Positions 6,212 through 47,871 of a stretch of 64,000 nt of DNA are shown here, piece by piece. The stretch covers positions 96,001 through 160,000 of the IMG/VR virus record IMGVR_UViG_3300031525_000001. One strand, given 5' to 3'. The translations under genes and the position numbers were made by a program. The number at the start of each line of letters is the position of its first letter. Within the stretch, counting starts at the first letter, position 1. The DNA is from a virus. The notes under the pieces were generated by a model. It did not search any database. It had not been told where the DNA came from and worked only from the letters and a program-made list of their open reading frames with translations.

Positions 6212-6411
6212 CGTTCATCGAGAAGGTCAACACGTTCGAAGCACTGTACGCGGCCTACATCGCGAAATTGGCTCGGCTGGATGAACTCAAAGCCAACGGT
6301 CGCTACGGCTACCAACTACGGATGCCGAAGAAATCCCTGAGCATCGCCGTCGCCAACCTGCGGCAGTTTGGGCAGGAACAGAACGTCGAAATCGCTTCCT
6401 TACTCAACTAG
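6208..6411 (+). CDS. Small hypothetical protein
   Basis: 67 aa, ATGA-coupled. It ends in TAG, in frame with the next ORF. Confidence 0.7.
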   Translation: MTFIEKVNTFEALYAAYIAKLARLDELKANGRYGYQLRMPKKSLSIAVANLRQFGQEQNVEIASLLN

Positions 6412-25397: not shown

Positions 25398-26261
25398 CTA
25401 ACCATTTTGCCCAAAAAGGTAAGCTTGAAGTACGTTGCCCGGTGTTTGACCCGTCACACGAACACGAACCCAGTTAAAATAGAGGCAAGACGGTGCCCAC
25501 ATGACCATTGTCGCTGCACCTGAATACACCCCCGTAGCTGTGTCGTATGCGATTGCCGCCTCGTTGTCTGGCTGACCTGCCGATGGTGCCGCATTGAGGT
25601 TACCGCTGATGTTTGCCCCGACGTTCGGGGTGCCCGTGGTGTTCGTAGCTGGTGGTTGAATTCCGCTGTTCTGCCATGCGTACAGGGTGAACGTGGTGTT
25701 GATGTTGAGCGGGCCGTTGGCGACTTCGAGGTTGCCGAACGTATTGCCCGAGTTAAACGGTGGATTCTGAAGGATATATAGTCCGCCGTTGACGCTGACG
25801 TACACGTTGTAGCCTGTAGCGTACCCGCCCGTGTCTGGACCGGGAGCGCCGATCTGAAGAGTGTTTCCTGCGGCGACGGCAAGCGATGTTGGCGTGCTGG
25901 CGACCGTCTCACCTTTAAGGTTGACGTAGGTCAGCTTTACCCCGTAAGTGGCGGCGGGATAGGCGAACGCCTGATTCCCGCCGCCTGCGCTAGAAGTCTG
26001 TCCGTGCCCTGCGCTCGTGGGGGTAAATGCGGTGAGAACTGGGGCTGAAGGAGCGGCAATCTGAGTGGCAAGGTTGTCGATGTTGACATTAGGGTCGTTG
26101 CTGACTTCGATGGTGATAGTGCCAGAAAGCGCGACAGGCAATCCAGCGGATGTCTGGGCAAAAATGTGGATCGAGGAGGCCACGAAATTCGAGACGTTAC
26201 GCCATGCCCCATCTGCGGCGGCGAGGTTCGTTTTGAGAATCTGGTTGGAAATAGTTTGCAT
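25398..26261 (-). CDS. Putative virion structural protein (beta-rich, Thr/Gly/Asn-rich)
   Basis: 287 aa; APSAPVLT...YGVKLTYVN..GET...TGYNVYVS pattern resembles Ig/FN3-type virion proteins. Confidence 0.55.
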   Translation of the reverse strand: MQTISNQILKTNLAAADGAWRNVSNFVASSIHIFAQTSAGLPVALSGTITIEVSNDPNVNIDNLATQIAAPSAPVLTAFTPTSAGHGQTSSAGGGNQAFAYPAATYGVKLTYVNLKGETVASTPTSLAVAAGNTLQIGAPGPDTGGYATGYNVYVSVNGGLYILQNPPFNSGNTFGNLEVANGPLNINTTFTLYAWQNSGIQPPATNTTGTPNVGANISGNLNAAPSAGQPDNEAAIAYDTATGVYSGAATMVMWAPSCLYFNWVRVRVTGQTPGNVLQAYLFGQNG

Positions 26262-26350
26262 GGAAGCTCCTTGCTATAGGAACTGAAAGTCAGAAAAGCG
26301 GTTTGTTTCCCGAAAATCAACTATCGGATGCTACTTCAGAGGGTAACAAC

Positions 26351-30261: not shown

Positions 30262-33200
30262 ATGGCACAAAGTGGAAACACCGTAGCTCTTAAATCGTTC
30301 CAGTCCTTCATGGTCAATGACGGATTGCTGAGCAAAACTGTCGAAGCTATCAAAGCTGGTGAGAAGGAAGCTCGCTCCACGGGTAATGTGCAGAGTTTCG
30401 AAGTTTTCTACAAGGGCTTTCGTCAGAACATTGCCATCGGTCGCATCTACATCGTCCCCCCATCCGTTGCCGACAAGAAGGGGCAAGACTTCCCGACCGC
30501 CCTGCTCTATGGTTGCCTTGTCCGCACCTTTGGTGGTGAGGAAATCGGCGACATGATCTCCCACAAAATCGGTGATACCGAATGGGATGAGTATTCTCAG
30601 GCGTCCTACGCATCGATCAAGAAAGAACTCTTCGGCACCGAAAACGACAAGTTCGCCGCCCTCATTTTGTTTGCCCCCAACTGGGTCAATAAGCGTGAGT
30701 ACATCGGCTTCCAGTTCCCGAAGGATGACAACGAGCTTGCGAACCTGACTCGTCACTTAGTCTTCAGTTCGTACTTCGACCCCCGTCTGTCCTCGGCATT
30801 CGATGCCCTGATGACCGATGTGGAGACCTCGAAGTTCGATGTCACGGACATCACGCCGAAGATGAACTTCCCCGCCTTGGCCGAGAATCCGCTGAAGGAA
30901 TTCCCACTGCTCACCAAGGAGGGTTCAAAGAAGAAAGCCCGCCTTGGGCTAACCATCAAGACCGCCGAAGAAGTCACCAAGGCCGTACTAGAGCCGCAGG
31001 AGATGGACGTGTTCGAATCTTTGGACACGGCTCTCCGCAACAGCCTCTTGCCAAACGATTCCAAGGGCGTTGAGGATGCTTCCGAGGGTAAGGCTCCGAC
31101 AAAGGGTGAAATGGTTCCACGTCTCTCATCCAAGAAGGGTTCCGCCAAGGTTGCTCATGGCTACATCGCGTTCTACGGCGGCAAGCGCATTGAGATTCAA
31201 GCCGACTCCCTCTATGGGGCGAAGTTGAAAGCCATCGAGATGCTGAAGGTTCCGAAGTCCAAACAGGGCTTGCTCGCGGTCGAGCTTGCCGAAAAGGACG
31301 GAGAACAGGTCACCACAACAATCACGTCGTCCGCCACTGCGGTATTCGAGACCCCGATTACAAACGTTGGTCCGGGTACTGAAGCCCATGACGAAGCCAA
31401 CCAGCGCACCGAAGGCTACAAGGATGAGAAGGACACGCCAAAGGTTGTCATCAACAGCGCACCGATTGGTATCGCTCTCGACGAGACTGGTGTACCCCGC
31501 CGTCCAGAGGAAGAGCGTAAGTCCGCCGCAAGCAGTTACTACCCTGCTTCCGCTGGTAAGGCTCAAACTGAAAACGCTGCGGTCGTGGAGAAACACGGTT
31601 ATACCCAATTTAATTCCAAGCCAGACGGAACTTCCTTTTGGAAGAGTCCTATCGGAACTACCGCTGTTCTATACCCAAACGGAAGCTGGATGCACACAGG
31701 CGGTAAGGGAGATGGGGCAAAGGCCCTTAGCGAGCTTCTCATAAGCTACCACCACGAGAGAGTGCCAAAGGTCAGCAAGTCAGCAGCGTATGGCGACCGT
31801 CGCGATTTTCGGAAGATCGATATCTTCGTTAGCGGCAAGTATGTCGCAAGCACGACATGGGCTAGTTCCATAAAGGAAGCAATCCAAAAATACGAGGAAA
31901 AGAACCCGGGCTCGTGGGCTGGTGAAGTTAAGGCTCAATTTGATAAGAAAGGCTCGGCTGATAAAACTGCCGTAGACTACAGCGGCAATTACCCCGAGGC
32001 AATCGGCGGTGGTTGGAATAAAGCGACGGCAGATGATCTGTCGAGCGGCTATTCCAAGCAGGTCGGCAACGGTTTGATGGATGAGACCCCCGACAAAGTA
32101 AAGGAACATTTGAAGAAAAATGTCAGTCAAGCCCGTCAGGGTCAGGATGCCCTGAAGGATCACAATGCATCATTTGACGCCGCCAAGTGGGGCGGACTGG
32201 GTGTGAAGCAGGCTTCCTCCCTGTGGGTAGGTTCCGCCAAGAAGGTTGCAGCCAATCTCGATGACTTCACTAGCCAGTACATTATAACCGCTCTATGGTC
32301 TTCGAATGATGAATCTGACCCCAGCGGCGGTGAGCCGTTGGATTCAAACTACGATATCCTCGATCTCGCACCGTCCTGCTTGCAGGCAATGACCGAAGAT
32401 TGCGCGGGCTTCCAAGCGGAGAATCAAGAGCTTCTGGCTGCGGCATCCGAACAAGATGGTCAGGACGCCGAGCGTCAAGGTCATGATTTCTGGCTCACCC
32501 GCTGCGGTCATGGTGCGGGCTACTGGGATGGCGATTATCCGACAACGGGCGATGGTTTGACTGAAGCCGCCAAGAAATGGGGTAGCGTTGATCTGTACGT
32601 CGGTGACGACGACATGATCTATCAGATGGGGGCAGAAGACCCGAGTTCGCGTGGTTACGGACAGAAGGGCGGGCCTGCAAAGGCTGGCTCGAAGATGGCT
32701 TCCAAGAAGACCGCCTCGCAAAATGATGCATCATACATCGCCAGCTTGATCGGCGGCGGGGTGCATAGTGAAGATTATGACGCTCGTTCGCAGCACTCCA
32801 GAACGGCGGCACAGAAGCGCGAAGACGAGATGGCTCGCAAGTATTCCTCTCAGCGTAAAAAGTTTGCCGACGTTCCTCAGGACATCGAAGACATTTGGTC
32901 TGAGACGATGGAAGACATGGGGCCAGCACCCGAGATCAGACTCCCGGGCGAGAGTGAGGACAACGAAAAGTCCACCACAGGGGAGCACGAGATCGAGGCT
33001 CCAGAGATGGGCGCGGATTCGAGAAGCGACGTTCCTGAGCAGGTCAAGGGCGATCAGGAAGAGCCGACCGTAAAGGTTGAAGAGGCTCTTGAGAACGACA
33101 CCACCAAGTCCGAAGAGGACGAGCCCAGCACGGGCGATGGTGGAGCGTCGGCGGACAGCGGTGAAACAAAGTCCGAAAAGAAGTCCGAGGGTGGTTCCCA

Positions 33201-36045: not shown

Positions 36046-39000
36046 GATCGATGACTTGCACGCCGCTGCCGCTCGTATGGCGGCGGACATCATGCACAGC
36101 GACAATGATCTGTCTCAGAAGCTCGAAACGGCGACCCCCGCAGCGGCGGAAGCTGGACCGAGCCACGATGAGTTGGTTGAGAATTCCCACAGCGAAAGCG
36201 GAGTTGGCGTAATCGACGGTGAAATCCGTCCGCCTGAACGTCAGAACGTCTCTGCCGTCAAGGATGCCATTGAAGCTCAAGCCGAGATGGAAATCGGTAA
36301 GACCATCGGAGAAAAAGAAGAAGAGATGGAGGCTCGTGGCGACGGTCCTTACGGTGACAAAGAAGTCAAGGACACCGCAGGCGCGACCGAAGTTACCGCC
36401 AAGCCGGGAACTCAAATCATCATCAACGTTGCGGGCAAGAAACAGGCTGCCCGAGAGTTCGTTGTAAAGCACACGACCGTAAACGACTCCCGTGGTCCGA
36501 AGACAGGCTGGTGGATTTTCGAAGATGGTCGGCCTTCGGGTATGCGTGCTACGCAAGAGGAAGCAGTGCAAGCTGCCGAGGCTACCGCACAACTCCGCAT
36601 AGTTAATGGGCAGGTCGCCCCAGTTCGTGTTGAAGCAGGTCAGAAAGAGCAACCCATCGGTGGTGAGAAGCAGCACCCAAGGGAAAACACCTCAGCCAAC
36701 GGTATGTTCGGCGGTACGAACTTGTCGGCAACCCCGAATTTTGAGAAGCACTCCGAAGAGGGTGCCCCCGATCCTGACACGGTTGCCCGTGTTCGTGGTC
36801 AGTACACATCCGGCATGGGGCGTAAATCCTGCATGGAGCACTTCAAGATCACGGAACAGCAGCTTGATGACATCCTGAGCGGGAAGTATGGCAAGGGAAA
36901 GTTCGCCTCGTATCACGAAGTTAAAGCAGCCTTCCTCAAGAAGGGTAGCTTCCTGACGATTGATGAGGTCAAGAAAGCAGGACAGGAATACCTGCACATG
37001 ATCCGCACCGCTGCGATTAGCGTGGCACAAGGTCAGGACGAGCAAGGGTTCCACATGCTGCTGAGCATGAACGGGCGTGAGTACGTCCTTCGTGGGGCGG
37101 ATGCGGACAGTTTCCGTAAAGAGTATGCCGCGATTCCAAAGCCCGAAGCGGCTGTCAACAAGCTCGTTGAAAAGTATTTGTGGAAAATGCAGCCGTACCA
37201 GAAACAGACCATTCAGCACCCACCGTCCGAGACGAAGCAGGACCCGAACAGTCAGGCACTTCGCCGCCAGCGGTCGGAAGGGTTGGCGGATGCGGATGCT
37301 TATTGGGCAGGCAAGGAAAAGCAGCCGAACGATTACAAGCGGTACATGACGCAGCACGCTTCCGCGAAGATCGCCGCAACATCATACGCGGAGTACCAGA
37401 AGTTGGTACAGGAGCGCAACCAGATTATCTCTCAGAATCGTAGCCGCCAGATGAAGGGTCAACCACCCGTGCCAGTGCCACCGAAGCCAGAGGTGCCGAT
37501 GGTTCCAGTGGCGTATGCTGCGGATGGGACGTATGAGGGTCGGCTACAGGACCCAGCGGATTGCCCACCGGGTTGCACCGTAAAGTGGGAGCCTTCCAAG
37601 GGAGCCAGTATGATGACCTTGGCTAAGCTGGCGGCTGATTATTTCGGCTACGATGATTGGATCACAGGGCACACCGCTCTGATGATTAACAATGATTCGG
37701 CGGGACTTACGACGCTGCACAATTTGGTCCGCAGTGCCCTGAAGAACAAGAAGACTCCGAAGATGTTGGCGGGTCAGCTTGCGAAGTTCTTCAAGAAGTT
37801 CGGCGACCAGAGCAAGAAGTTCTACGCGGAGAACGCCGACAATGCTCGGGGCGAGCGTGGTAAGCACGAGCGTGAGCAACTCGAAGGCGTGGTTAAAGCG
37901 CCAAGCGGCGACAAGGCCCGTGATTTCGTCGATAACCTGACGAACATGTGGTACGACGCGGGTGGGCAGAGTGACTGGGAGCAGCCAGCGGGTGAAGTTA
38001 ACTGGGAGGAGATCGCCTCTGCGGAGATGGAGTCCGAGCGTGCGGAGAACCCAGACAAGTACCCGAAGACAAACAAGGAAGACGACAAATTCATGGAAGG
38101 TGTGGGGATGAAGATGGAATCACTCAGGACAGCAACGGCAGTATTAGCAAGAGTCGCCGCTATGAGCGTGGGTGACAAACATCAGCTTCGCATCGCAATC
38201 GACTCTCTCAAAATGAACCCCGCTATGCTGGGCGTCATGGGGGGACCTGACAAAGAACAAGCTTTGGAAATCTTAGCTAGGCACGGTTTACGCTGGGACG
38301 AAGCAGGAGGTAAGGCTGTGAAAGCAAACGATAAGAAGGCCGCTGCTGGTTGCGACTGGCAGACCGAATACGGAATGGGTGCTGGCGATGCCCGCTGTGG
38401 ACAGCCGACCACGGGTAATTCTCCGTGGTGTGCCGAACACATTCAGGAAGCCAAAGACAACTACCCGCAGCACGCCCTCCCGACCAAGAATGGTGGGGAA
38501 GGTGCGGCTAAGACCCCAGAAGAGATCGAAAAGGAAGCAGGCTTCAATTTCTTCTTCCCGGGTCAGGTACTTCGTGAGGTTGCCCCCGAGATGCAACATG
38601 AACTCGTGGACTATCCAAACCAGACCAACACCCCAATGCAGTATCCTGACATCGTTGGTGACGGGGAAGAGGTTCCAGAAGAGATGGCTCTTGCAGCCGC
38701 TCTCGAAGGCGCTATGGATACAACCATCATCGCTTACGTCAGCACCAGCCCCGCCGCTGCCGCAGGTATCGGTCGTGACGGCAAGACTGAAGTGCTCGAA
38801 GGGGCCCCGCTCCGCAAGGAAAACGACATCCGTGGTATGATGTTCACGGACGAGTTTTACGGTCAGCAAGAGGGCGTCCCGGGTGCGGCATTCGCAAGCA
38901 CCAAGGCCGCAGGTGGATTCGCCCGTCCGGGTTCGGCGTTCAAGTTCCTGAAGAGTCTCAAGCTGGGCAAGACGGCAGGTGCCGACGAAGCCAAGCAGTT

Positions 39001-39417: not shown

Positions 39418-39942
39418 ATGAGTAGCCTACCGCAGTATAAAGGTAAAACTCGTCAGCAGTACATGAGTGAGTGGCATAACAAGTATCGTGCATATTGGAG
39501 CACGCACGATGCGTATGTTGAAACCAAGTCCAAAATTTGCGTGTACTGTGAAAAGGAAAAGCCGAGCGTTGCTTTTTCCAAGGCAAACACGAACAAGGAT
39601 GGGTTACAGGCATACTGTATCGACTGTCTCAAGCAGTGGCACATCGATGATCCAACACGTCAAATGCTGCTCAACGCCCGTGCCCGAGCCCGTCGTTTGG
39701 GAATTGAATTCGCTCTTGATGCAAAGGATATAGTAATTCCGAAAGTTTGCCCCGTTTTGGGTATCCCGCTTGTCGTGAGATCAAAGGGGAAAAACAACTC
39801 TCCGAGTCTGGATAGGAAGGATAACTCTAAGGGATACACCTCAGATAACATTCGAGTGATCTCGTGGCGGGCAAATGATATCAAGGGGAACGCCACTGTC
39901 GCTGAGCTAGAAAAAGTGTTAGAATACATGAAGGAAGCATGA
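39418..39942 (+). CDS. HNH endonuclease with N-terminal Zn ribbon
   Basis: CVYCEKEK...YCIDC; CPVLGIPL...PSLDRKDNSKGYTSDNIRVISWRANDIKG. Confidence 0.85.
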   Translation: MSSLPQYKGKTRQQYMSEWHNKYRAYWSTHDAYVETKSKICVYCEKEKPSVAFSKANTNKDGLQAYCIDCLKQWHIDDPTRQMLLNARARARRLGIEFALDAKDIVIPKVCPVLGIPLVVRSKGKNNSPSLDRKDNSKGYTSDNIRVISWRANDIKGNATVAELEKVLEYMKEA

Positions 39943-40379: not shown

Positions 40380-40661
40380 ATGTGCGGAGGAGTAGGACAT
40401 CGAAGTTACCGACGCCTAGCAACGCTGCCGATTGATCCGAGCCCCACTCCGTGGGATTTCAACACGTGGGGGTTCTTCTGTGATAATTGCATGACGTTCT
40501 TCGACTTGCTGCAACACGGCAAGGTCCTCACGTTTAAGGGCGAGGACGGAGAATGCTGGGCTACTTACGAACACAAGTGTGGTCAGCCAGCCCGATATAT
40601 CGGATATTGTCGTGACACAGAGTTTACTCGCGTAGCTCAATTGCAGAGCACTTCATTCTAA
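40380..40661 (+). CDS. Small Cys-containing hypothetical protein whose 3' end overlaps the tRNA
   Basis: 93 aa with a CDNC motif; the stop TAA lies in the tRNA anticodon loop. Confidence 0.5.
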   Translation: MCGGVGHRSYRRLATLPIDPSPTPWDFNTWGFFCDNCMTFFDLLQHGKVLTFKGEDGECWATYEHKCGQPARYIGYCRDTEFTRVAQLQSTSF

Positions 40662-40700
40662 ACGAAGGGGTTGCGGGTGTAAGTCCCGTCGCGGGTTCCA
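40626..40700 (+). tRNA. Amber-suppressor tRNA (anticodon CUA), atypical D and T loops
   Basis: Cloverleaf: ACTCGCG/CGCGGGT acceptor, GCTC/GAGC D-stem, CTTCA/CGAAG stem with loop TT-CTA-AA, GCGGG/CCCGT T-stem, discriminator T, encoded CCA; 75 nt. Confidence 0.85.
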
Positions 40701-40733
40701 AGTGCGGCCCTACCATGCGTGGGTGCCGTTTTA

Positions 40734-40776
40734 GGGGGCGGTTCTCTCCACTACGCAGCCGCCCCCGGTTTTTCTT
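40734..40776 (+). terminator. Rho-independent terminator after the tRNA
   Basis: GGGGGCGGTT/AGCCGCCCCC stem followed by GGTTTTTCTT. Confidence 0.7.
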
Positions 40777-40995: not shown

Positions 40996-43128
40996 ATGGC
41001 TGACAAGAAAGTCAAAAGTACAACTTGGACAAAGCTCGCAGACAATCTCCTGCCTGACGCGACAAAGAAGATCAATGCCATTGACTTCATTGAAGGCCCG
41101 GGTGGGACAGGTCTCGTTCTGCGTCCTGTTCAGCGTGTTCTTGTCAAAGCACTTTTCGCCGTTCCCTTTGACTACCGCCCCAAGTGGGCAGACTCCATCG
41201 ACAACTGGGGAATGGTGGAGATGTGGAATCCCTTCCGTGATGAGCTACTCCGCACGGTTACGGAAGAAGAGTATCTCCACATCGTTCACGAAGAGGGTCG
41301 CTGCAACGTCGGAGACTGGCGGGACATACCACAAAGAGGATTCAACGAAGGCGTCATCTTCTGCGGTCGTCGTGGTGGTAAGTCCGAAGTCGTCGCCGCC
41401 ATCGCCGCCTACAAACTCTACCTCACTTTGTGCATCAACTCGCCGCAGAAATTCTTCGGCTTGGCTGAGGGTTCCAAGATCGACTTCACCTTTCTTGCAC
41501 AGGACGAAACAGGTGCGGGTCGATTGTTCCAAAAGCTTCAGGCCGCTGTCACCCGTGCCACGTGGTTCCACACCTACATCAAGGACAGCAACGCCAAGAA
41601 CCTGACGTTTACTTGCGAAGCTGATCGTCACCATAAGGTCGATGCCAAGCCGTCTATTCAAGTCGTATCGCTGCCCTGCACCACGAACGCCGTCCGTGGT
41701 CCTTCGTCCCTCTTCCTCGCCCTTGACGAGTTTGCCCACTTCCGTTCCGAAGTAGGCTCCACGTCTGAAGACATGTACGTAGCCGCTACGCCTGCCGCTG
41801 GCGACTTCCACCACGAAGAAATCACCGCCCCTCCCGTGCTCCATGAAGCCGACTTTCACCAAGCTGGCGATTTTAAGCACGCGGAACCAGTTGGTACAGA
41901 AGGCAAGGTTGAAGTTCAGGACTCACTGATTCTGAGCATCTCGTCGCCACTGAAGAAAGTCGGTATGATGTACGATCTCTACCGCATGGCGATGGAGGAC
42001 GGCATCAACGAGGACAACCCGACGTTCGCCCTCAGTTGCTCATCGGCGGAAATGAACCCCAAGCTCAAGGCCGGGTTCTTGCGTGATAAGGCTCGTAAAA
42101 ACCCCCTCACGTTTAAGGCTGAGTACGGCGGACAATTCTTGGAATCTACGGAATCGTTCGTTCGATCCATCGACATCATGACCTGCACGGATGTCACCGC
42201 GTGGGATGTCAAAACCGAACCCACATTCGGCGTTCTTGCGCCCGCACCGGGAGCAATCGTTCGTCAAAACTGCGTGCGATTCAACGGAGATCAGGTGGGC
42301 TACAACTACTTCTGGGGTCTTGATCTTGGCGGCGTGAACGTCACCGATCCTGATAACAGCCGACCCGATGGTTGCGCGTTGGCGATTGGACATCTTGAGG
42401 TTCGTCAATCGACTAATCCGACGCCCGGGTTGACGCATGGTTTTCATTTGGTGTTCGACTACATCGACCGCATGATCGCGGGAGAACTTTTCGAAGGTCC
42501 CGGCGTCACCGTCTCGACGCCTGAGGGTATGAAATACACGGATTTTCAACTCCTACCCGTGAAGGACATTCTGCTCTGGTTGAAGGAGATGAACAAAATC
42601 CTCCCATGCTACAAAGGCTCAACCGATCAACACGCAGGTCGTCAGCTTATCACCTTGCTGGAACAGAATGAAATCAACAACATGGAGTTGGTGAACCTCA
42701 CACCTGCCATCAACTCGGAAATGGCGTATGCGTTGCGCTCGTTCATCAACGACCACACCGCCAACTTTCCGTATGTGCCCAAGTTCATCCATGAAATCAA
42801 AATGGTTGAGACCGACGTGGTTGCCAAATACCGTATCCGCGTCCATGCTCCTCTGGAAAAGGGAGCCCACGACGACATGGTAGATGCGGTCATGCTCGTC
42901 GCTATGCAGGTTCAGACGTGGTTGATAGACGAGGGTCACCTCAAGATGGACCCCACGGGGCAGAGCCTCATCATGCAGCGTCAGCAAGCACTTCCGAAGA
43001 GATCGATCCTCAACATAGACGCCATGAGTATGAGCGACTTAAAGGCGAGTGAACGGGCGTACCAGATGAGCAAGTTCAAGTTTGGCGGCGGCAGCCACAG
43101 GGTTGCTAGAGGCCGACGAGGACGTTAG
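40996..43128 (+). CDS. terL: Terminase large subunit
   Basis: Walker A GRRGGKS, Walker B LALDEFAH, motif ILSISSP, RNase H-like nuclease with WGLDLG and HDDMVDA; 710 aa. Confidence 0.92.
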   Translation: MADKKVKSTTWTKLADNLLPDATKKINAIDFIEGPGGTGLVLRPVQRVLVKALFAVPFDYRPKWADSIDNWGMVEMWNPFRDELLRTVTEEEYLHIVHEEGRCNVGDWRDIPQRGFNEGVIFCGRRGGKSEVVAAIAAYKLYLTLCINSPQKFFGLAEGSKIDFTFLAQDETGAGRLFQKLQAAVTRATWFHTYIKDSNAKNLTFTCEADRHHKVDAKPSIQVVSLPCTTNAVRGPSSLFLALDEFAHFRSEVGSTSEDMYVAATPAAGDFHHEEITAPPVLHEADFHQAGDFKHAEPVGTEGKVEVQDSLILSISSPLKKVGMMYDLYRMAMEDGINEDNPTFALSCSSAEMNPKLKAGFLRDKARKNPLTFKAEYGGQFLESTESFVRSIDIMTCTDVTAWDVKTEPTFGVLAPAPGAIVRQNCVRFNGDQVGYNYFWGLDLGGVNVTDPDNSRPDGCALAIGHLEVRQSTNPTPGLTHGFHLVFDYIDRMIAGELFEGPGVTVSTPEGMKYTDFQLLPVKDILLWLKEMNKILPCYKGSTDQHAGRQLITLLEQNEINNMELVNLTPAINSEMAYALRSFINDHTANFPYVPKFIHEIKMVETDVVAKYRIRVHAPLEKGAHDDMVDAVMLVAMQVQTWLIDEGHLKMDPTGQSLIMQRQQALPKRSILNIDAMSMSDLKASERAYQMSKFKFGGGSHRVARGRRGR

Positions 43129-44234: not shown

Positions 44235-45290
44235 ATGGTTCCGTTAGAGACCACTGCATTCGCATTTTCTTCCCTCAAATTTGGCAATCTCTTAGCTGTA
44301 GCCCTCTTTCAAGGCCCTAAACGAATCGACCAACTCTTCACCCTCGCACAGGAACGACTACCGCAGGAATGCGGCGACAAGTGGCAATACGAACTCATCC
44401 AAACCCTCATCGCCATTGGTGAAGAGGTCGATGGCGTGTGGCACGTCCGCCGCACAATGCCGATGGACGTGATTCCCGTCACCACACCCCCGCCCTCCAA
44501 ACCCGACAGCCAGTACGACAAGATTCAGTATGATCCACGCACCGGGCACCACATCGGCGATGATGGGTTCCGTGTCCCGAAAGACTTCCTCGAATTCTAC
44601 GAACGCTACCCGAACTACATCCGCAATTGGGTGAAGAAACGTCTCGCCCGCTTCGTAGTGGATGAGGATGTCGAAGACTGGACGCAGGACCTTATCATCC
44701 ACATGAAGTACCTGCCGCAGACCAGCAAGCACCGCAAGCCGGGTGCGAATGACCGCGTGAATGGCTGCACGGACGTGATTGAGACGTTCAACCCGATTAG
44801 CCAGTATGGGGCATCCGAGCGTCGATTCCGCTCCTACGTCAACATGTGCCTCACGAACAAGTTCAACACCGTGTACTCGAAGCGCAACAAGAACCCAATC
44901 TGTCGGCAGGGCAACGTCACCATCGTGACGAACGTTGATCCCAGCCATGAGAATGGTGAGTACGACGTGGTGGACGATGCGTACTGCCATGTGCACTCAG
45001 ACTACCTCAGCAACGCCACGGCACGCACGGCACAGCAGTACGAAAACTACCTGCTCGCCAATGAGTTCCGCCGTTACGTCGAGGCGAAAGACCCAGAGTT
45101 GGCACCCGTGGTGGATGCGATCCAGCAGGCATCGTCCCAGCACGAAGCTGCTCGTTCTTTGGGCATCAGTGAGACCCTTTTCGCTCGTCACCGCACGCGA
45201 CTGAAAGAGTTGGCCCGGAGCTTCCAGAACAACGATGTGGGAGAATCCAAGCGTAAGCGAGGGCGACGGAAAACAGCGCAAGTGGTATAA
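44235..45290 (+). CDS. Phage sigma-factor-like protein (divergent, regions 2 and 4)
   Basis: FYERYPNYIRNWVKKR..DVEDWTQD...FRSYVNMCLTNKF (region 2-like); EAARSLGISETLFARHRTRL (region 4 HTH). Confidence 0.65.
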   Translation: MVPLETTAFAFSSLKFGNLLAVALFQGPKRIDQLFTLAQERLPQECGDKWQYELIQTLIAIGEEVDGVWHVRRTMPMDVIPVTTPPPSKPDSQYDKIQYDPRTGHHIGDDGFRVPKDFLEFYERYPNYIRNWVKKRLARFVVDEDVEDWTQDLIIHMKYLPQTSKHRKPGANDRVNGCTDVIETFNPISQYGASERRFRSYVNMCLTNKFNTVYSKRNKNPICRQGNVTIVTNVDPSHENGEYDVVDDAYCHVHSDYLSNATARTAQQYENYLLANEFRRYVEAKDPELAPVVDAIQQASSQHEAARSLGISETLFARHRTRLKELARSFQNNDVGESKRKRGRRKTAQVV

Positions 45291-45499
45291 TGGGAGAATC
45301 AGTGATTGAGACCGTAACAATTCCTAAGTTTCGTTTAGCCGCGATCATCAAGAAGTTCGGCAAACCCGTGGAGGCTGGAGACGGTTACATCTTGTCGGTG
45401 CCACTCGAAGACTGCATTGGGGTGAGTAGCCTTGAAGTCATTCCCGCCGATGGTGCTGACGGTTTGGCAATCTCGTATGTTGCTCACGAGAGGGCGTAA
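45290..45499 (+). CDS. Small hypothetical protein
   Basis: 69 aa, TAATG-coupled. Confidence 0.6.
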   Translation: MGESVIETVTIPKFRLAAIIKKFGKPVEAGDGYILSVPLEDCIGVSSLEVIPADGADGLAISYVAHERA

Positions 45500-45545
45500 G
45501 GGAACAAATCCAAAGACTTTGGGTTCTAATGATTATGGGGGCCAC

Positions 45546-46289
45546 ATGTTCGAAGACAGCCTATTAGAGTCTGGCGGTAAGCTGAAGGATAAGCGTGGGC
45601 GGTACACATCGGTCGCATTCCTGATCGAAGCGGTGCTCCTCGGCATAGCTCTGTTGATTCCCCTGTACTACACCGAAGAACTGCCCAAGGCTCAACTCTT
45701 TACGTTCTTGGTTGCCCCTCCCCCACCCTTGCCGCCGCCCCCTCCAGCGGCCGCAGTTGTGCATGTGCAGCACGTTGTCCAGACTGACATCGTGAACGGG
45801 CAGCTACGCACGCCCACCCGTATCCCGAAGAAGATTCAGCAGATCGTAGAGGATACCGCCCCGCCGCCAGTCAATACTGTTCAAGGCGTGATTGGCGGCG
45901 TCCCGGGTGGTGTCCCGGGAGGGGTGCCAAACGGCGTGATCGGCTCAATCATCAGCGCGGTCCCGCAGTCGGTGCCGCAACTCGCACCACCCAAGGTCGT
46001 GAGGGTATCATCGGGCGTGTCACAAGGAATGTTGATCCGTAAGGTGACGCCGAACTACCCCCCGTTGGCACGTCAGGCCCGCATACAGGGCTCCGTGAAC
46101 CTCGAAGCTGTGATCTCTACGGATGGCACCATCGAAAACCTGAAGGTCACCAGCGGGCACCCGATGCTCGTCCCCGCCGCGATAGATGCCGTTAAGCAGT
46201 GGCGCTACAAGCCGTACTTGCTCAATGGTTCGCCTGTCGAAGTGCAAACAACCATTCAGGTGAACTTTACCTTGGCGGGTGGTTCCTAA
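45546..46289 (+). CDS. tonB: TonB family energy transducer (Acidobacteria-style)
   Basis: MFEDSLLES, TM anchor, poly-Pro linker, GGVPGGVPGG, TonB_C domain YPPLARQARIQGSVNLEAVISTDG..V.SGHPMLVPAAIDAVKQWRYKP. Confidence 0.9.
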   Translation: MFEDSLLESGGKLKDKRGRYTSVAFLIEAVLLGIALLIPLYYTEELPKAQLFTFLVAPPPPLPPPPPAAAVVHVQHVVQTDIVNGQLRTPTRIPKKIQQIVEDTAPPPVNTVQGVIGGVPGGVPGGVPNGVIGSIISAVPQSVPQLAPPKVVRVSSGVSQGMLIRKVTPNYPPLARQARIQGSVNLEAVISTDGTIENLKVTSGHPMLVPAAIDAVKQWRYKPYLLNGSPVEVQTTIQVNFTLAGGS

Positions 46290-46317
46290 AAGTCTCGGAC
46301 TATGGTATTATTATAGT

Positions 46318-46410
46318 GCATGGGAGGTAATGCCTCCCGAAACGTTGTTCATCATGGCTAGTTCCAATGAGTTCCGTTCGAATCGGGCTTGGAACTAGCC
46401 TTTTTTCTTT
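46318..46410 (+). ncRNA. Candidate ~90-nt small RNA with own promoter and terminator
   Basis: TATTAT at 46306; hairpin GGGAGG/CCTCCC; 12-bp stem GGCTAGTTCCAA/TTGGAACTAGCC capped by a TTCGAAT T-loop arm; U-tract. Confidence 0.45.
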
Positions 46411-46443
46411 GCTCGTGGTATCATCGGCAAAGTGGAGGATCGC

Positions 46444-47037
46444 ATGTTTGGATCAAAGACAGTCAAACGCAACGGCACTGAGTTCTTCGTGCAGGGCAAC
46501 ATCTCGGACGGCAATGTCATTATCGTGACTAAGGACGGCAAAGAACATCGCTGCGACCGTCCCAACCGCCTCGGCGTTCAAGAGGAAACACCATGGCTCA
46601 GGAACCTCGGCGAGGATTCCCGTGACGGCGACCGCTGCTGGAATATCGATCCTGTTGAAATCATGAACAAGTTCAACTCGGGCGACTATTACCAAACCAA
46701 GGCTTTCTTCGTCATCGGCAAGTGGGGAACGGGCTACAACACGGACGACGGCGTTCTGGACACCGTGCGCCTGTCGGATGTCGCGGGCTTTAAGCAACTG
46801 GTGAGCGAAGTCCCGTGCGACCTCGGTTGCGACTGGCCGAAGGGACATGCGGGCCACTGCTGGGTCACCCCGAACCAATTGGTGAAAGACCTGAATCTCT
46901 CCAAACAAGACGTGATCGCCATGTTCCAGAAGTGGTTCGACGGCCTCGACGCGGGTCAAGTTGTCGATCTGGGGTATAAAGTGGGACTTACGAACGAGCA
47001 GTTAATCGCCATGGTCAAGGACGTTCGGAAGGGCTAG
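46444..47037 (+). CDS. Hypothetical protein
   Basis: GGAGG RBS, ATG at 46444; ends in TAG. Confidence 0.75.
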   Translation: MFGSKTVKRNGTEFFVQGNISDGNVIIVTKDGKEHRCDRPNRLGVQEETPWLRNLGEDSRDGDRCWNIDPVEIMNKFNSGDYYQTKAFFVIGKWGTGYNTDDGVLDTVRLSDVAGFKQLVSEVPCDLGCDWPKGHAGHCWVTPNQLVKDLNLSKQDVIAMFQKWFDGLDAGQVVDLGYKVGLTNEQLIAMVKDVRKG

Positions 47038-47042
47038 GTCTC

Positions 47043-47384
47043 GTGCAACCCTACTCGTGGGTATGGTTCCCGAGCACAAAAGGCAGCGGCCCGCCCTATG
47101 GCTGGTACATGCCGTTGGGCGAGCGTCTATGGCGTGCCCTCACCTATAACCACGCCCACCAGTCGGAAGCCTTCACGGGCAACCCCAAGAAAAAGAAGCT
47201 TCCTTGGCCTCGATGGAGGAAGGAAGTCGCTCGCATCCTCATCATTCTAGACGTGTTCCTGAGCCAGCCCGAATATTGGCTAGTCAATCACTACGATCTC
47301 ACCTACCCCCAGTGCTCTCGCCTGAGACGCCTCCTCCTTTGGGAAACCCGCTTCTACCTCTGGGCGGCTGGTTTCTCCGAATAA
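47043..47384 (+). CDS. Hypothetical Trp-rich protein
   Basis: 113-aa ORF with phage-like codon usage. Confidence 0.55.
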   Translation: MQPYSWVWFPSTKGSGPPYGWYMPLGERLWRALTYNHAHQSEAFTGNPKKKKLPWPRWRKEVARILIILDVFLSQPEYWLVNHYDLTYPQCSRLRRLLLWETRFYLWAAGFSE

Positions 47385-47422
47385 AATCTGCCTACCGTCC
47401 TTCTTGTTAGGGGGACATTCAC

Positions 47423-47563
47423 ATGTTCAGTCTAATCAAGATTGCTATTGAAGCCGCGTTTGCGGCAGCGTTGTTCATCGGCGGTGTCAAATTTGGGATT
47501 GCGTATCCCACTATCGGCACCAAAATCGATACGCTCTTTAGCTGGGCGAAGTCCGTTCTGTAA
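47423..47563 (+). CDS. Small membrane protein (46 aa)
   Basis: MFSLIKIAIEAAFAAALFIGGVKFG; not in the ORF track. Confidence 0.65.
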   Translation: MFSLIKIAIEAAFAAALFIGGVKFGIAYPTIGTKIDTLFSWAKSVL

Positions 47564-47571
47564 GGCGAACT

Positions 47572-47871
47572 ATGAGCCCGATTAAAGACATTTTGCAGAT
47601 CGCGGAGAATGTCACCGTTCTTCTGGCTCTTCTTGGAGGAGCGGCGGGCGGCATCAACTGGTACGTCAAGCGGCATGACCGTCAGGCGGCGGGGCAGAAA
47701 GCCGTCACTCAGATCGATACTCTGGCGACTGGCTTCCCCAATATGGTCGCGGACATGGCGGTTGTGAAGAAGACTAACGAGAAAGCCGTCGATCTTCTGA
47801 CCAGCATGGACAAGGGAATCGCGGTGATGGCTGCACGAAGCGAGGGTTCTCGAACACGGAGAACCGACTAA
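47572..47871 (+). CDS. Membrane protein, holin-like topology (uncertain)
   Basis: TM VTVLLALLGGAAGGINWYV followed by a helical tail. Confidence 0.55.
   Translation: MSPIKDILQIAENVTVLLALLGGAAGGINWYVKRHDRQAAGQKAVTQIDTLATGFPNMVADMAVVKKTNEKAVDLLTSMDKGIAVMAARSEGSRTRRTD

Follow-up and report, generated by a model that had tools for sequence, protein, structure and literature searches.

A conserved amber-suppressor-type tRNA gene beside the terminase gene of a standard-code huge phage, and a candidate UAG-gated partner gene

Suppressor tRNAs of phages are commonly taken to indicate an alternative genetic code. They are carried by the code 15 phages, which read TAG as Gln and include crAss-like, Lak and Agate phages (bioRxiv 10.1101/2021.08.26.457843; PMC9523058), and they are also found in huge phages that use the standard code. 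The authors who described XacN1 inspected 18 amber stops for its CUA suppressors and found no target (PMC5852040, 2018), RsoM2USA has a CUA suppressor without a known target (PMC8504454), and the CUA tRNA of Acinetobacter phage ME3 is annotated as 'tRNA-OTHER anticodon CTA'. Here, we analyze a further CUA tRNA gene, from a giant soil phage, which most probably acts as the key to a translational switch of one gene instead of signalling a change of code.

The window analyzed is a 64,000-nucleotide stretch, bases 96001-160000 of a 186-kb IMG/VR contig (G000). The contig has a GC content of 54%, covers about 58% of an estimated 320-kb genome, and encodes about 11 tRNAs, a permuted tmRNA and giant polyproteins. 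Three relatives (G001, G002 and G003, the last a complete genome of 455.7 kb) were retrieved by means of the terminase gene that lies downstream of the tRNA. Neither the region nor the tRNA itself showed close similarity to named phages.

An initial annotation of the window, made from the sequence alone, had held that the phage is not globally recoded, pointing to genes that end in TAG and to very long open reading frames without an internal TAG. Both observations stand: the stops at 6411, 7444, 43128, 44085, 47037, 50302 and 63489 are each indeed TAG, code 11 leaves the long frames of the window (1500, 1944, 1115 and 824 aa) open, and the giant late frames contain no TAG. The comparison of coding density under codes 11 and 15 that it had proposed was made with a gene caller whose codon scores were self-trained on each genome's own long open reading frames, applied with four codes to four genomes. 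Density peaks under code 11, above code 15, in G000 and all three relatives, and global recoding of TAG, TGA or TAA is thereby rejected. TAG makes up 15-20% of the stops across the four genomes, whose GC content is 53-55%; by our own gene caller it ends 13 of 59 genes in the window and 32 of 160 on the contig. When the four genomes were compared by tblastn through stops, 9 TAG, 16 TAA and 10 TGA codons were recovered, nearly all at alignment ends, with no excess of TAG inside conserved alignments, and no in-frame TAG was found in conserved genes. Programmed read-through beyond TAG stops was rejected as well: the extensions are short and not coding-like, two positive cases proved to be separate genes, and no conserved coding extension was found behind the TAG stops. 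Candidates for an in-frame TAG joining two coding segments turned out to be antisense shadows or adjacent genes. Moreover, there is no excess of back-up stops after TAG and no clear bias in the base that follows it.

The search for a phage aminoacyl-tRNA synthetase or RF2, likewise proposed by the initial annotation, yielded no match to RF2 (PF00472) in G000, G001 or G002 and no match to PylS (TIGR02367) in G000 through G003, G000 being incomplete. In the combined search for RF1/RF2, GlnRS-type and PylS genes, no GlnRS-type gene was found and the only match was a gene of G003, whose product is of the RF1 type, with a PxT motif, and not RF2. That gene (L051 1219-1875; G003 133757-134413) encodes an RF1-like protein of 218 aa that lacks domain 1 and retains PxT-type and GGQ motifs; it lies in a tRNA cluster and adjoins an unannotated gene of 203 aa. 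By all of these measures, the phage is not recoded, either globally or by module.

The tRNA gene occupies positions 40626-40700 on the plus strand and is the sole tRNA that ARAGORN calls in the window, with the same extent and anticodon (CUA) that the initial annotation had read. It scores 51.2 bits against Rfam RF00005 (E 4.8e-8), well past the gathering score of 29. The predicted RNA is a class I, elongator-type cloverleaf of 75 nt with four helices, an encoded CCA and U73 as discriminator. Its 7-bp acceptor stem consists of A1-U72, C2-G71, U3.G70 and four G-C or C-G pairs, and the linker UA (2 nt) leads into a D stem of 4 bp. The anticodon stem has four pairs plus an A31.C39 mismatch beneath which lies the loop UUCUAAA, and the variable loop is 5 nt long. 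The canonical elbow, in which G18 G19 meet a T54-Psi55-C56 sequence with A58, is absent: the 7-nt D loop AAUUGCA has no GG, and the T loop UGUAAGU keeps U54 and A58 while G55 and U56 replace Psi55 and C56. Positions 55 and 56 are among the most conserved in tRNA, and the 18:55 elbow contact is universally conserved. Direct reading, ARAGORN and Rfam thus bear out the cloverleaf, the encoded CCA, the unusual D and T loops and the mismatch that had been noted before.

The same holds for the view that this is not a pyrrolysine tRNA. The gene has a five-position anticodon stem, a 5-nt variable loop and a 2-nt linker, as against the 6-bp stem, 3-nt variable loop and 1-nt linker of tRNA-Pyl, and PylS is absent from the four genomes as far as these are complete. 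As to identity, similarity and a discriminator census show that U73 and the 1:72 pattern resemble those of the Arg and Thr tRNAs of the clade. Established work on the amber suppressors of E. coli suggests that U35 would bias the tRNA toward Gln or Lys. Judged by its sequence and conservation, the window tRNA is a true tRNA of the amber-suppressor type, encoded by a huge phage that uses the standard code; we infer that it is expressed, charged and able to suppress UAG, and that it serves the gate described below.

Directly 3' of the tRNA gene, at 40704-40729 on the plus strand, folding predicts a conserved hairpin, a possible processing or stability element, which G002 retains and G003 has with another sequence. 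The hairpin matches no Rfam family, ribozymes included, and an HDV-like or other ribozyme 3' of the tRNA was accordingly rejected. A second, G+C-rich hairpin followed by a T run (40734-40776, plus strand) resembles an intrinsic terminator and would end the transcription unit of the tRNA; it is conserved in G002 and, as a structure, in G003. Upstream, at 40459-40487 (plus strand), there is a weak sigma-70-like promoter match (TCAACA-17-GATAAT with TG), to be set against the outcome of the promoter scan, which gave 3 sites where 1.9 are expected by chance. A Cys-rich small open reading frame (40380-40661, plus strand) overlaps the tRNA gene by 36 nt, and its C-terminal end is unconserved in G002. 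Farther upstream, a gene for an endonuclease VII/HNH-type, homing-endonuclease-like protein (39418-39942, plus strand; PHROGs phrog_3322, E 2.5e-33, and phrog_1035) is present in G000 and G001 and, by synteny, missing from G002. The syntenic anchor of the locus is the terminase large subunit gene at 40996-43128 on the plus strand, assigned by PHROGs terminase families, whose stop codon is TAG in G000 and G001 and TAA in G002 and G003. We found no gated open reading frame adjoining the tRNA; a TAG before a small zinc-ribbon frame nearby was rejected as a gate, since it belongs to the terminator.

Several other translation-related genes of this clade are also unusual. A tRNA-like gene outside the window (G000:C1:44854-44935; L009 14854-14935; Rfam 47 bits) has an anticodon loop of 8 nt, and ARAGORN assigns its G003 counterpart (about 26230-26302, minus strand) the four-base anticodon 'gcaa', which raises the possibility that the clade conserves a tRNA of the quadruplet or frameshift type. 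At G000:C1:45494-45624 (L009 15494-15624) there is a tRNA-like sequence of 131 nt, without an encoded CCA, whose anticodon arm carries a 59-nt insert of two hairpins, with CUAGAA in both loops; the equivalent place in L067 and L068 holds a tRNA with the 8-nt loop UUCUAGAA. Among the G000 tRNAs at 45154-47588 and 77926-78013, Arg(ACG), Thr(UGU), Gln(UUG) and Pro(GGG) have long extra arms and lengths of 85-91 nt. In place of the usual T54:A58, Thr(CGU) has A54 with U58 and Thr(GGU) has A54 with C58, and Lys(UUU) has U56. The permuted, two-piece tmRNA (L009 8620-8888, that is G000 38620-38888; G003 30867-31271; Rfam RF04321, 61 bits) has similar tag peptides in G000 and G003.

The tRNA is conserved at its site beside the terminase gene. 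In G001 (terminase 95% identical) it is identical at 75 of 75 positions, with both flanks unrelated. In G002 (terminase 88%), it matches at 71 of 75 positions, as against 50 of 68 in the upstream flank. Two of the four differences lie in the acceptor stem, where they preserve pairing (U3.G70 becomes C-G, and C4-G69 becomes U.G); one lies in the variable loop and one at position 57, which remains a purine. At the same site in G003 (terminase 64%) there is a tRNA of 103 nt whose best fold is a cloverleaf with a CUA arm and an extra arm (z = -3.6). CUA is therefore retained in G001, G002 and G003, a point on which the initial annotation had made its reading depend. The G003 gene (L013 9698-9803) has a canonical elbow and two anticodon-type arms in tandem, one with the loop CCCUAAC (CUA, but with C33) and the other a 7-bp hairpin with the 6-nt loop UGUUAA, and ARAGORN reads it as Asn(GUU) with a 29-nt intron. 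G003 has two further CUA tRNAs in its main tRNA cluster. More distant relatives, at 50% terminase identity, have full tRNA sets with no tRNA at the terminase site and no CUA tRNA in the clusters examined, and a scan of IMG/VR for the T-arm pattern returned only G001 and G002.

What might such a tRNA decode in a phage that uses TAG as an ordinary stop? A candidate emerges from the cluster of G003. Directly upstream of its two cluster CUA tRNAs lies a small gene with a leader of 8 codons, then TAG, then a conserved core, with no start codon between TAG and core. G000 has a leader with the same 8 codons followed by TAG. Nineteen IMG/VR loci encode relatives of this gene, and 15 distinct loci were examined. 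Reading upstream from the core motif YFYVFVRQD, the first in-frame stop encountered is TAG at all 15. It lies 0-9 codons before the core at 13 loci, with a start codon 1-12 codons further upstream; the two others are L082, which is ambiguous, and L083, which is distant and fused upstream. At all but one of the 13 gated loci, between one and three CUA tRNAs are found no more than about 2.5 kb away. Since the leaders differ widely, the TAG appears to be maintained and not merely inherited.

The same gate is found in the cultured phages GAP32, RsoM2USA and ME3, with CBB also counted among the gated phages, and across metagenomic loci and cultured phages the UAG lies 2-13 codons after the start codon. 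XacN1 probably has it too. Its ORF364 (AP018399.1 243693-245192; L087) is a fusion of an HD domain with a PTH2-like part, and a good ribosome-binding site serves an in-frame mini-leader, ATG-AAG-TAG, four codons before the annotated start; on this reading of the sequence, ORF364 is a candidate target of the two CUA suppressors of XacN1. In all, the gene occurs in cultured phages of Cronobacter, Ralstonia, Acinetobacter, Xanthomonas, Erwinia and Serratia, and the cultured relatives, as defined by it, infect Proteobacteria; it is often unannotated because the UAG breaks gene calling. By structure prediction, the gated protein has a PTH2 fold and is peptidyl-tRNA-hydrolase-like: an AF2 model of the G003 protein (pLDDT 81) matches archaeal and human Pth2 structures, and the best 10 Foldseek matches are Pth2 or uncharacterised Pth2-like archaeal proteins (probability 1.00, TM 0.63-0.74). 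Its match to Pfam PF01981 (E 3e-4) falls below the cut-off. A genome-wide scan for a start, 1-14 codons, a stop and an open reading frame showed no enrichment of TAG, and the PTH2-like leader was the sole convincing case; a candidate at window position 46396 was rejected as a conserved terminator. We found no paper describing a UAG-gated PTH2-like gene.

The gated loci also place the window tRNA in a lineage. The nearest relative among the CUA tRNAs of PTH2-like loci is L072_4697 (L072 4697-4771), which is 85% identical and lies beside the gated gene of another huge phage. The two tRNAs share the loop UUCUAAA, the 31:39 mismatch, the variable loop, the T stem and U73, while L072_4697 has a canonical elbow from which the window tRNA differs by G18 to U, U55 to G and C56 to U. 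On the alignment, these changes amount to a reciprocal exchange at the 18:55 contact (G18:U55 to U18:G55) together with a G19.U56 wobble. In the alignment of the six members of this lineage, 95.2% of the cells pair and 8 pairs have changed on both sides, including four of the five pairs of the anticodon stem, and yet position 31:39 is unpaired in 6 of 6. Features that at first seemed degenerate are thus either hallmarks of the lineage or compensated changes, and, on this comparative evidence, neither the A31.C39 mismatch nor the odd elbow is a sign of decay as such. By the same evidence, the window tRNA is a displaced member of a phage CUA tRNA family that is marked by the loop UUCUAAA and A31.C39, with U73 added in this branch, and whose conserved partner is the small PTH2-fold gene with its early UAG.

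In G000 itself, the switch is only partly preserved. Some 92 kb from the window tRNA, at G000 43096-43122, the leader survives intact, including a ribosome-binding site and the TAG. Just after it, an antisense homing-endonuclease gene of the Endonuclease_7 family (Pfam E 3e-13) has been inserted, replacing the first 45 nt or so of the PTH2-like coding sequence; no group I intron was detected at the insertion by Rfam. The body of the gene begins at its own ATG, separated from the leader, and the gate thus appears to be bypassed. The frame of the leader remains open across the inserted gene, up to an ATGA where it overlaps the ATG of the body; we give this no weight, because long antisense open frames are common in this genome. 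G000 has three endonuclease-VII/HNH-type genes beside translation-related loci (window 39418-39942, plus strand; L009 9951-10520 and 13128-13862, both minus strand), and one of the three splits the PTH2-like gene. A near-identical relative, L066 (contig 3300037391_000017), which is probably a second contig of G001, retains both the gate and two CUA tRNAs. The homology between G000 and L066 downstream of the gene stops just before the site of these two tRNAs, and no other CUA tRNA was found on the G000 contig, even with relaxed settings. The lock and its neighbouring keys seem, from this comparison, to have been lost together in G000, which supports a functional link between the gate and the CUA tRNAs.

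On balance, we lean toward the view that the window tRNA is a functional suppressor of a jumbo-phage lock-and-key lineage that has been displaced to the late region. The phage would transcribe the suppressor tRNA and a host synthetase would charge it; the charged tRNA would then read the gate UAG of the PTH2-like gene, so that the enzyme would be made only while the phage suppressor is present. The identity of the inserted amino acid is probably unimportant, because the UAG sits in a variable leader. In G000 this switch would be partly dismantled, with the leader kept, the endonuclease between leader and body, and the downstream CUA tRNAs gone; with the cluster copies missing, the contig has no CUA tRNA other than the terminase-proximal one. 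The broader proposal, that the orphan CUA tRNAs of standard-code jumbo phages in general are keys of a conserved one-gene PTH2-fold lock, we put forward tentatively, as a serious possibility somewhat short of an even chance. The initial annotation had suggested conditional read-through of selected genes. Among its options this alone gains support, and more narrowly than first put: the tRNA lineage is linked to a single amber-gated PTH2-fold gene, with the UAG just after the start and not at the end of the gene.

Several points weigh against the window tRNA as such a key. The gate is far from the tRNA, and no gated frame lies beside it. The body of the PTH2-like gene has its own ATG, and the gate in G000 may control nothing now. 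The G55/U56 replacements and the loss of G18 could interfere with processing, with modification or with function on the ribosome. As 20% of the genes, the downstream terminase gene among them, end in TAG with no excess of back-up stops, a strong suppressor would be costly. The RF1-like protein of G003 would oppose suppression. Finally, 42% of the genome lies beyond the contig.

Under the main rival reading, the gene would be a relic, a redundant paralog of the cluster suppressors that is weak or inactive and has simply not yet decayed while the switch of G000 is being dismantled. The loss of G18 and the presence of G55 and U56 at near-invariant positions are what one would expect of such a copy, G000 has a bypassed gate and no CUA tRNAs in its cluster, and G000 and G001 are too closely related for decay to show between them. 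We nevertheless consider this explanation rather unlikely. The elbow variant is common to G000, G001 and G002 and hence predates the endonuclease insertion; the 18:55 change is a reciprocal swap and not a one-sided loss. All of the stems are intact, the changes in G002 keep both the pairs and the purine at 57, and the CCA, the downstream hairpin and the terminator are conserved. Moreover, G001 (with its probable second contig) and G003 keep the terminase-proximal copy alongside cluster copies.

Alternatively, the tRNA might be a general suppressor that causes broad UAG read-through on host mRNAs, phage mRNAs or both, for takeover of the host or to make C-terminal extensions, a proposal that we judge unlikely. 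The tmRNA and the PTH2-like enzyme would in that case act as damage control, and the gate would do no more than tie the enzyme to the activity of the suppressor. The genomes of relatives contain several different CUA tRNAs, the permuted tmRNA and the PTH2-like gene share a translation island with the tRNA cluster, and the window tRNA has the sequence A36-A37-A38, a context known from efficient suppressors on which MiaA acts. If suppression were general, however, it is difficult to see why no conserved coding extension follows any TAG stop and why TAG stops are neither avoided nor backed up; in XacN1, too, nothing was found behind 18 amber stops (PMC5852040).

It is also conceivable, but very unlikely, that the RNA does not decode at all; it might instead divert or inhibit a host defence directed at tRNAs, or form an RNase P/Z processing signal before the terminase mRNA. 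The position before the terminase gene is fixed in the four genomes, and many tRNAs of the same phage have odd loops. On the other hand, relatives at 50% terminase identity do without a tRNA at this site, and the anticodon loop, with its CUA and the 31:39 mismatch, is conserved while the stem covaries, which points to a decoding constraint. The anticodon-nuclease decoy listed as one option by the initial annotation finds no support, as a CUA anticodon mimics no host tRNA. Its other option, an early stage of recoding toward TAG as a sense codon (code 15), is scarcely credible: the gain of a suppressor by standard-code relatives of recoded phages has been proposed as the first step of such a change (bioRxiv 10.1101/2021.08.26.457843), but TAG is not depleted in any of the four genomes (15-20% of stops, at a GC content of 53-55%), conserved genes have no in-frame TAG, there is an RF1-like gene in G003 instead of an RF2 gene, and the layout of tRNA plus gate is stable across very diverged phages.

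The reading of the window tRNA as the key of a gated gene gives the orphan CUA tRNA a concrete, testable partner. It also has a practical side, namely that a CUA tRNA alone should not prompt re-annotation under code 15, and that gene callers miss gates located close to a start codon. What this locus adds is a displaced copy, an elbow swap, a conserved mismatch and a case of a broken lock. If the lock-and-key reading is true, then a key can move away from its lock, here to the late terminase region, and can tolerate a reciprocal swap of the 18:55 elbow contact, and a homing endonuclease that breaks the lock would be followed by loss of the neighbouring keys. For tRNA biology, the points of interest are a 31:39 mismatch conserved in a suppressor lineage and a functional-looking tRNA with G55/U56.

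The closest described systems remain XacN1, RsoM2USA and ME3. Like them, G000 belongs to a huge phage with the standard code, TAG stops, a large tRNA set and at least one CUA tRNA, and has the PTH2-like gene, which in RsoM2USA and ME3, and probably in XacN1, carries a UAG near its start. Unlike theirs, the window tRNA lies beside the terminase gene and not in the cluster, its elbow has U18:G55 and G19.U56, and the gate of its genome has been cut by an endonuclease. The code 15 phages offer a looser parallel, in that a phage CUA tRNA has been proposed to gate particular phage genes in a standard-code host; here, in contrast, a single gene with one UAG in a non-conserved leader would be involved, TAG is a common stop, the GC content is not low and no RF2 was found. 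The bacterial suppressors supD, supE, supF and su7 have in common with the window tRNA a class I cloverleaf in which CUA is followed by A37 A38. They are point mutants of canonical tRNAs with normal elbows, whereas the window tRNA comes from a natural gene that is conserved and that has a non-canonical T loop and a 31:39 mismatch shared by its lineage. Finally, the gate recalls the autoregulation of prfB (RF2), where an early in-frame stop likewise ties expression to the termination and decoding machinery, with the difference that the gate proposed here would be passed by a dedicated suppressor tRNA and not by a frameshift, and that its product would be a PTH2-fold enzyme.
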